A DNA stretch of 18,646 nucleotides, from positions 1 through 18,646 of the forward strand of contig JAGVZG010000009.1 of assembly GCA_018302765.1 (NCBI GenBank). Reading direction: 5' to 3'. This document shows, piece by piece, positions 6,601 to 6,628 of the stretch. Under the pieces are notes generated by a model. That model was not told the DNA's origin, made no database searches, and saw only the letters and a list, made by a program, of their open reading frames with translations. The translations under genes were made by a program, and so were the position numbers. The first letter of the stretch is position 1. Each line of letters starts with the position of its first letter. Source of the DNA: Candidatus Woesearchaeota archaeon (GTDB taxonomy: Archaea; Nanobdellota; Nanobdellia; SCGC-AAA011-G17; GW2011-AR18).

Positions 6601-6628
6601 ACTTCGCAGAATGTATCTTCTGCGAACC
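6601..6628. other. dif-like tyrosine recombinase site (11-6-11)
   Basis: ACTTCGCAGAA-TGTATC-TTCTGCGAACC; the inner 9 bp of the arms are a perfect inverted repeat. Left arm is 9/11 identical to the B. subtilis dif arm ACTTCCTAGAA. Reverse complement of the right arm is 9/11 identical to the E. coli XerC arm GGTGCGCATAA. Spacer is 5/6 identical to E. coli TGTATA. Confidence 0.8.

Follow-up and report, generated by a model that had tools for sequence, protein, structure and literature searches.

A candidate dif site beside a single archaeal xerA gene in a Woesearchaeota chromosome

A non-coding gap in the genome of a Candidatus Woesearchaeota archaeon (GenBank assembly GCA_018302765.1, contig JAGVZG010000009.1) contains a 28-bp near-palindrome upstream of a gene for a tyrosine recombinase, which raises the question whether the two form a chromosomal recombination system of the Xer/dif type or whether the palindrome serves another purpose. 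We analysed the first 18,646 nucleotides of this contig (hereafter the window) in the context of the complete assembly, which is 100%-complete and comprises 1,018,737 bp in 28 contigs with 30% G+C, and of related genomes. A sequence-only reading of the window had suggested that the palindrome is a symmetric dif on which a single archaeal Xer acts, and this proposal is supported by the anatomy of the site, its single copy in the genome, its conservation across the order with coordinated changes of the arms, its linkage to xerA, and the identity of the recombinase as XerA with an intact catalytic set. Judging from these sequence comparisons, we estimate a probability of roughly 0.85 that the 28-bp sequence is the dif of this Woesearchaeota (GTDB Nanoarchaeota) chromosome and the substrate of the XerA protein, whose gene begins 868 bp further downstream.

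The 11-6-11 layout with a TGTATC spacer (Table 1) was confirmed on the sequence itself and by an inverted-repeat check: positions 6603-6611 and 6618-6626 form a perfect 9-bp inverted repeat with 6 nt between its halves, and the complete 11-nt arms agree with each other at 9/11 positions. The claim that both arms are of the XerC-arm type holds on recomputation of the identities to the B. subtilis and E. coli arms, for which the reference bacterial dif sequences were taken from PMC3025954; the XerD arms exhibit just 6-7/11 identity to the arms in the window. The whole site matches B. subtilis dif at 20/28 and E. coli dif at 18-19/28 positions, and its spacer differs from that of E. coli dif (TGTATA) at one position only (5/6). 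The inner core reads GAA-N6-TTC, as opposed to TAA..TTA in 16 of the 19 aligned sites of the order (see below); its departure from published archaeal dif sites counts against the dif reading. The T-to-G change is symmetric, and GAA is also found in the XerC arm of B. subtilis dif. The palindrome is rarer than chance would give: the whole genome contains only 16 perfect 9-6-9 inverted repeats, and the site in the window is one of the two among them with at least 4 G/C per arm.

Table 1. Features of the putative dif-xerA unit (positions in the window)
Feature	Position	Strand	Basis
Dif-like site, 11-nt arm / 6-nt spacer / 11-nt arm: ACTTCGCAGAA TGTATC TTCTGCGAACC	6601..6628		sequence and profile R1
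Left arm ACTTCGCAGAA, putative XerA half-site	6601..6611		9/11 to B. subtilis XerC arm
Central region TGTATC, presumed strand-exchange region, sets site polarity	6612..6617	+	spacer comparison
Right arm TTCTGCGAACC, putative XerA half-site	6618..6628		reverse complement GGTTCGCAGAA, 9/11 to E. coli XerC arm
Non-coding flank kept in same-genus relative	6629..6745		68% identity over ~140 nt to L038 8606-8720
Two orphan ORFs (6742-7122, 7153-7464), variable segment between full site and half-site	6742..7464	+	no Pfam match
dif half-site AAGTTCACATAA and spacer start	7475..7492	+	weak R1 match; between TATA-like box 7465-7473 and xerA ATG
xerA, tyrosine recombinase, 284 aa	7496..8350	+	NF040815 recomb_XerA_Arch

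The neighbouring recombinase had been taken for an archaeal Xer, and the family models agree. ORF 7496-8350 passes the NCBIfam equivalog model NF040815 (227.2 bits, cut-off 220) and stays below the cut-offs of XerD (207.1 vs 329.6), XerC (196.2 vs 335.15), the integron integrase (TIGR02249, 192.4 vs 265) and the XerS model. Its best relative of solved structure is XerA of P. abyssi (4a8e, E=1e-40), and the catalytic residues R137, K165, H228, R231, H254 and Y263 are all present. The gene is located not in a mobile element but in a conserved chromosomal block together with argS and orc1, and the closest xerA loci in public genomes belong to metagenome-assembled genomes (MAGs) of Woesearchaeota/Nanoarchaeota. 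Two other, weaker tyrosine-recombinase matches were found in the genome, on other contigs.

How widely the site is shared was examined in the GTDB order to which the genome belongs. A degenerate 22-mer searched with at most 3 mismatches has matches in 48 of 240 genomes, compared with ~6 hits for a reversed control; examples are TCGCATAATGTATCTTATGCGA, TCGTATAATGTATATTATACGA and TCGCCTAATGTATATTAGGCGA. Nineteen sites of the order were aligned (alignment A1), yielding the consensus GGTTCGCATAA TGTATn TTATGCGAACC with TGTAT as the majority spacer, and a sequence-only profile (R1) was built from them; the profile was needed because a simple palindrome scan of the close xerA loci missed diverged sites. 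In the genome under study, the site in the window is the top and only match of R1 (E=2e-6; 27.7 bits), and the arm pattern with up to 3 mismatches likewise occurs at a single place in 1.02 Mb. At E<=0.01, R1 has matches in 45 of the 151 sampled genomes of the order, nearly always at one place and in a few genomes at 2-3 places on one contig (the palindromic nature of the site makes R1 score each place on both strands). The predictions of a single copy and of arms conserved in DPANN relatives are thereby borne out. Of the 240 genomes of the order, 223 (93%) have XerA, whereas R1 finds a site in only 30% of the genomes sampled, which counts against the dif reading; gaps in the MAGs and divergence of the site are likely causes of the missing matches. 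Between lineages both arms change together, and the inner AA-TGTAT-TT core stays like that of bacterial dif. A BLAST search of a 176-bp dif region against the family retrieved a homologue only in the same-genus genome G001, the rest being A+T-rich noise; the site of that relative (locus L038), ACTACGCAGAG TATACC TTCTACGAACT, differs at 6/28 positions and is symmetric at only 7/11. Six differences within a genus are fast change for an essential site, which counts against the dif reading.

The expected proximity to xerA orthologs is found in most of these relatives. The site lies on the xerA contig, at most 11 kb from the gene, in 35 of the 45 R1-positive genomes; in the other ten the two are on different short contigs or the position of xerA is not listed. 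The distance is at most 150 bp in 13 genomes (G010, G022, G032, G037, G073, G096, G115, G132, G186, G187, G196, G197, G198), 0.4-1 kb in seven including the window, 1-4 kb in 12 and 6.7-10.7 kb in three, so that 20 of the 45 are within about 1 kb and 32 within 4 kb, where a random site would fall with a chance of ~1% (genome of ~0.8 Mb). Other searches added 13 further linked genomes (G185, G188, G193, G204, G207, G208, G098, G239, G153, G077, G001, G101, G024), and the xerA-linked genomes span at least 14 GTDB families.

In the window, the site is upstream of both of its neighbours, the divergent ORFs 5873-6469 (-), which encodes a HATPase_c_2 protein, and 6742-7122 (+), which has no family. 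The gap between them had been put at ~270 bp and the distance to xerA at 868 bp; measurement gives 272 bp and exactly 868 bp from the end of the site to the ATG. Closer to the gene, the half-site listed in Table 1 recurs in four close relatives at the equivalent position, and three of them (loci L038, L039 and L041) have clear R1 matches there. Such a conserved promoter half-site suggests that XerA may repress its own gene; it is possible that it is an autoregulation site, or else what is left of an ancestral dif located immediately beside xerA. The full site is located at various distances upstream of this xerA-proximal half-site, from 0.4 kb in L039 and 0.87 kb in the window to 1.4 kb in L038 and 3.2 kb in L040, and the DNA between them is variable: the segment equivalent to 6742-7464 contains four different small minus-strand ORFs in L038 and comprises only ~400 bp in L039. 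An order-wide search for homologues of the first orphan ORF (ORF126, 6742-7122) found one only in G002, in another context and with no dif-like site within 1.5 kb. The non-coding flank immediately after the site is kept in L038 while the surrounding genes have been replaced, and could be an accessory sequence or a promoter.

Several other features of this region were observed. The box TTTTAyCCTAGG precedes both orphan ORFs (6721-6745 and 7124-7156). A search of the whole genome showed that the CCTAGG box that follows the site is no motif of genome-wide occurrence; its exact 17-mer occurs once in the genome and at nine other places with 3 mismatches, among which the second box, being too diverged, is not included. 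A near-identical TTTACCCTAGG adjoins the dif arm in locus L034 (G186). The dif-xerA unit is flanked by Fic/DOC and HATPase_c_2 genes (5063-6469) on one side and by a PIN-domain gene (8835-9116) on the other; at the syntenic place, L038 lacks the Fic and HATPase genes and has an HNH-like ORF instead. Finally, the region 14705-18550 encodes a 1281-aa FlaI/VirB11-type secretion ATPase interrupted by an intein, with matches to the N- and C-terminal splicing regions at residues 499-596 and 994-1016.

A palindrome of this kind may in principle have nothing to do with recombination. It could be a structural RNA or DNA hairpin, such as a terminator or a small RNA, or a chance palindrome; it would fold into a 9-bp stem that contains G+C, closed by a 6-nt loop, and ~140 nt after the site are conserved in one relative. 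An RNA hairpin terminator, which had been named as a case that would overturn the dif proposal, was checked and rejected, since the site is upstream of both flanking genes, which point away from it, no T-run follows, and no Rfam family matches positions 6300-6900 even at E<=10 (nor was anything relevant found in the whole window at the gathering threshold). At the inner nine arm positions, 80-100% of the sequences in alignment A1 pair, and positions 7-9 co-change (CG to UA, AU to CG, UA to GC) with a covariation score above that of all 500 shuffles, but 7 of the 19 sites are asymmetric at arm position 7, where the oppositions include non-wobble G-G and C-T, the outer two arm positions are mostly asymmetric, and the spacer is asymmetric yet conserved (TGTAT). 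Co-changing arms, non-pairing oppositions and an asymmetric conserved spacer together are more in keeping with two half-sites read by one co-evolving protein than with an obligatory hairpin, and conservation across the order with linkage to xerA excludes a chance palindrome; we therefore give these explanations hardly any weight. A protein could, however, read the half-sites without recombining them, if the site were only a regulatory operator for XerA autoregulation or for another dimeric transcription factor at the divergent promoters. The location in a divergent promoter gap would suit this, as would the half-site between the TATA box and the xerA ATG in the family of the window and the position of the full site in many relatives, 26-130 bp upstream of xerA beside a TATA-like box. 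Yet the full site in the window is separated from xerA by 868 bp and two genes and thus is not at its promoter, the flanking genes vary between relatives while the linkage to xerA persists, the motif does not recur at other promoters of the genome or in related viruses, and dif sites of Bacteria and Archaea that are proficient in recombination share both its 11-6-11 geometry and its AA-TGTAT-TT core, all of which makes a purely regulatory role very improbable.

The third alternative is that XerA is exploited by gene cassettes or small mobile elements, for which the site mainly serves as a point of capture or integration, in the manner of IMEX elements and plasmid dif modules, and that dimer resolution plays a secondary role or none. 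It derives from the relatives that have more than one site. Three dif-like sites were found in G030 and G125 and two in G154, G223, G211 and G220 (loci L030 at G030:C1:343.7-345.2 kb, L203 at G125:C65, L200, L201, L202 and L204); two of the copies in G030 are identical, flanks included. Spaced at 0.6-1.7 kb, the repeated sites coincide exactly with ORF boundaries and enclose 1-4 ORFs whose products look accessory or defence-like: an AAA_14/DUF4143 ATPase, a dCTP-deaminase-like and MazG pair, a PRTase and a bPH_2 protein. The variable DNA between the full site and the xerA half-site, which differs between same-genus genomes, and the different genes on the other side (Fic and HATPase_c_2 in the window, HNH in L038) speak in the same direction. 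On the other hand, the majority of genomes possess just one site, immediately at xerA, without any cassette, no dif-like site lies near the ORF126 homologue of G002, duplication of dif at one locus is known in S. solfataricus with no claim of mobility, and scans of viral contigs gave no sign of a matching site in a free element or virus: three scans, two with consensus variants and one with the arms of the window, returned four hits, all in G+C-rich or P22-portal-type bacterial phage contigs, which are unrelated to the 30% G+C lineage and hence lend no support to a viral attP or a viral promoter operator. We consider a main role in cassette capture improbable, and it would be compatible with, and dependent on, the site being the dif of XerA. 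The att site of a mobile element was rejected as a candidate because of the missing free or viral form and the single, cassette-less site in most genomes; an integron site was rejected likewise, as the integron-integrase cut-off was failed, the IntI-specific domain is absent, and Rfam gave no attC match.

If the 28-bp sequence is dif, its mode of action may be outlined by homology with XerA of P. abyssi, T. acidophilum and S. solfataricus, from which we infer the binding, the cleavage and the role in dimer resolution. One XerA monomer would bind each of the near-identical 11-bp arms, and the two dif sites of a chromosome dimer would synapse as a XerA tetramer. Tyr263 would then cut at the borders between arms and spacer, and the strands would be exchanged in two successive steps over the 6-bp TGTATC region, via a Holliday junction, converting the dimer to monomers, presumably with no need for FtsK.

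The location of this putative system in the chromosome was also considered. The main orc1/cdc6 gene (>400 bits in most genomes) is present on the xerA/dif contig, 7-38 kb away, in ~37 genomes, with a distance mostly of 7-16 kb and thus below 20 kb; in genomes consisting of a single contig it amounts to 12 kb (G107) and 25 kb (G025). In the genome studied here, orc1 is on another contig (C15:32074-33165), but a translated comparison showed that the contig of the window (C23) follows the end of C15, which is 37,589 bp long, in G010 (C3) and in the same-genus L038, placing orc1 ~11 kb from the site by synteny. At the C15-C23 junction (window 1-1100), ~2 kb are absent from the same-genus relative. 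Origins of replication in archaea are associated with orc1 genes and ORB boxes. A strict ORB-like pattern (TTCC N2-4 GGAAA N1-6 G-string, i.e. the dyad plus the G-string) was matched only three times in the 1.02 Mb of the genome. Upstream of orc1, an A+T-rich gap contains two of these copies (C15:33280 and 33354); the third is at window 3464-3486, inside ORF 3290-4003 and 3.1 kb from the site, and ORB-like boxes were found at the same two kinds of place in the relatives G010, G186, G107 and G032. The site therefore occupies no demonstrable terminus opposite oriC but lies near orc1 and ORB-like boxes, and the xerA/dif module is probably origin-proximal, a judgement that draws on what is established about orc1 and ORB boxes at archaeal origins rather than on replication data. 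Cumulative GC skew gave no clean origin or terminus signal in either the near-complete G030 or the single-contig G107. A bolder proposition, which we advance tentatively and regard as rather less than even, is that the XerA/dif pair of Woesearchaeales is fixed within ~10 kb of an Orc1-type origin instead of the terminus and acts as a landing pad for accessory and defence cassettes kept between repeated dif-like sites. If true, it would be an archaeal counterpart of IMEX elements and dif modules, and dimer resolution would be uncoupled from termination to an extreme degree. Very small genomes might also acquire genes by way of such cassettes bracketed by dif sites.

Whatever the status of that proposition, the analysis provides a large group of uncultivated DPANN archaea with a concrete candidate dif sequence and a consensus, which helps to find chromosome landmarks in fragmented assemblies, and with a minimal pair of one protein and one site that is open to in vitro work. 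Systems of this kind are already known, in Sulfolobales and haloarchaea, and the undescribed part seems to be the lineage: in agreement with the surmise that a dif of this lineage may be undescribed, the literature searched contained no paper on dif in Woesearchaeota or DPANN, and a 2021 review of archaeal tyrosine recombinases makes no mention of either.

Among the systems with which the locus may be compared, the bacterial XerC/XerD dif (PMC3025954) has the same 11-6-11 geometry, and in relatives of the window the site contains runs also present in E. coli dif, such as CGCATAATGTATATTA; however, the arms in the window are both of one type with no XerD-type arm, and the site is not at the terminus. 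The bacterial XerS/difSL and XerH/difH systems (PMC5357621) likewise comprise one recombinase and a site beside its gene, inherited as a module, but difSL has a central region of 11 bp instead of the canonical 6 bp found here, the protein from the window matches XerS and XerH far more weakly than XerA, and the present module belongs to Archaea, where FtsK is not available as a partner. IMEX elements and the plasmid dif modules of Acinetobacter resemble the loci of those relatives whose repeated dif-like sites bracket short sets of accessory genes beside an Xer site, whereas the window has one full site and one half-site, and no free or viral form was found. Integron attI/attC platforms, including the archaeal integrons (PMC9668308), also place a recombination site and small genes of variable content next to the gene of a tyrosine recombinase, but XerA from the window does not possess the extra domain specific to IntI (the alignment to IntI4, 2a3v, skips chain residues 185-241), and the sites are 28-bp double-strand palindromes rather than attC folds of 55-150 nt.

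The closest parallels are the archaeal XerA/dif systems of P. abyssi, T. kodakarensis, T. acidophilum and S. solfataricus (PMC2958812, PMC3020120, PMC11840125), which likewise have a single XerA-type recombinase, a single-copy near-palindromic 11-6-11 site and a conserved flank on one side. Archaeal dif is xerA-proximal in Sulfolobales but distant from the gene in Thermococcales (PMC2958812), dif-like sites are located upstream of the xerA operon in haloarchaea (PMC11840125), and some archaea have been reviewed as carrying a xerA/dif module (PMC5357621); the linkage in the window thus resembles that in Sulfolobales and haloarchaea. In S. solfataricus a partial site that overlaps dif binds one Xer subunit (PMC3020120), and the nearby partial site in the window resembles DYAD2 of that species. 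Unlike the hosts of the known systems, the host here is a DPANN woesearchaeote. The arms are much nearer to the bacterial XerC-arm consensus, with the identity to B. subtilis dif given above set against 15/28 to the T. kodakarensis dif (TTTTGATATAATGTACCTTATATGACAA; PMC11840125), and the genus of the window has the inner core GAA..TTC in place of the TAA..TTA of published archaeal dif sites, in which TAA-N6-8-TTA is the best-kept feature (PMC11840125). Further, the module is ~7-38 kb (mostly under 20 kb) from orc1 and its ORB-like boxes, in contrast to the 120-180 degrees that separate dif from oriC in the known archaeal systems. This origin-side position departs from the pattern of Bacteria and Thermococcales, which counts against the dif reading, but dif of Sulfolobus is also outside the termination (fork-fusion) zones (PMC3020120), and if the position is confirmed, it would extend the Sulfolobus result that dimer resolution in Archaea need not occur at the terminus.
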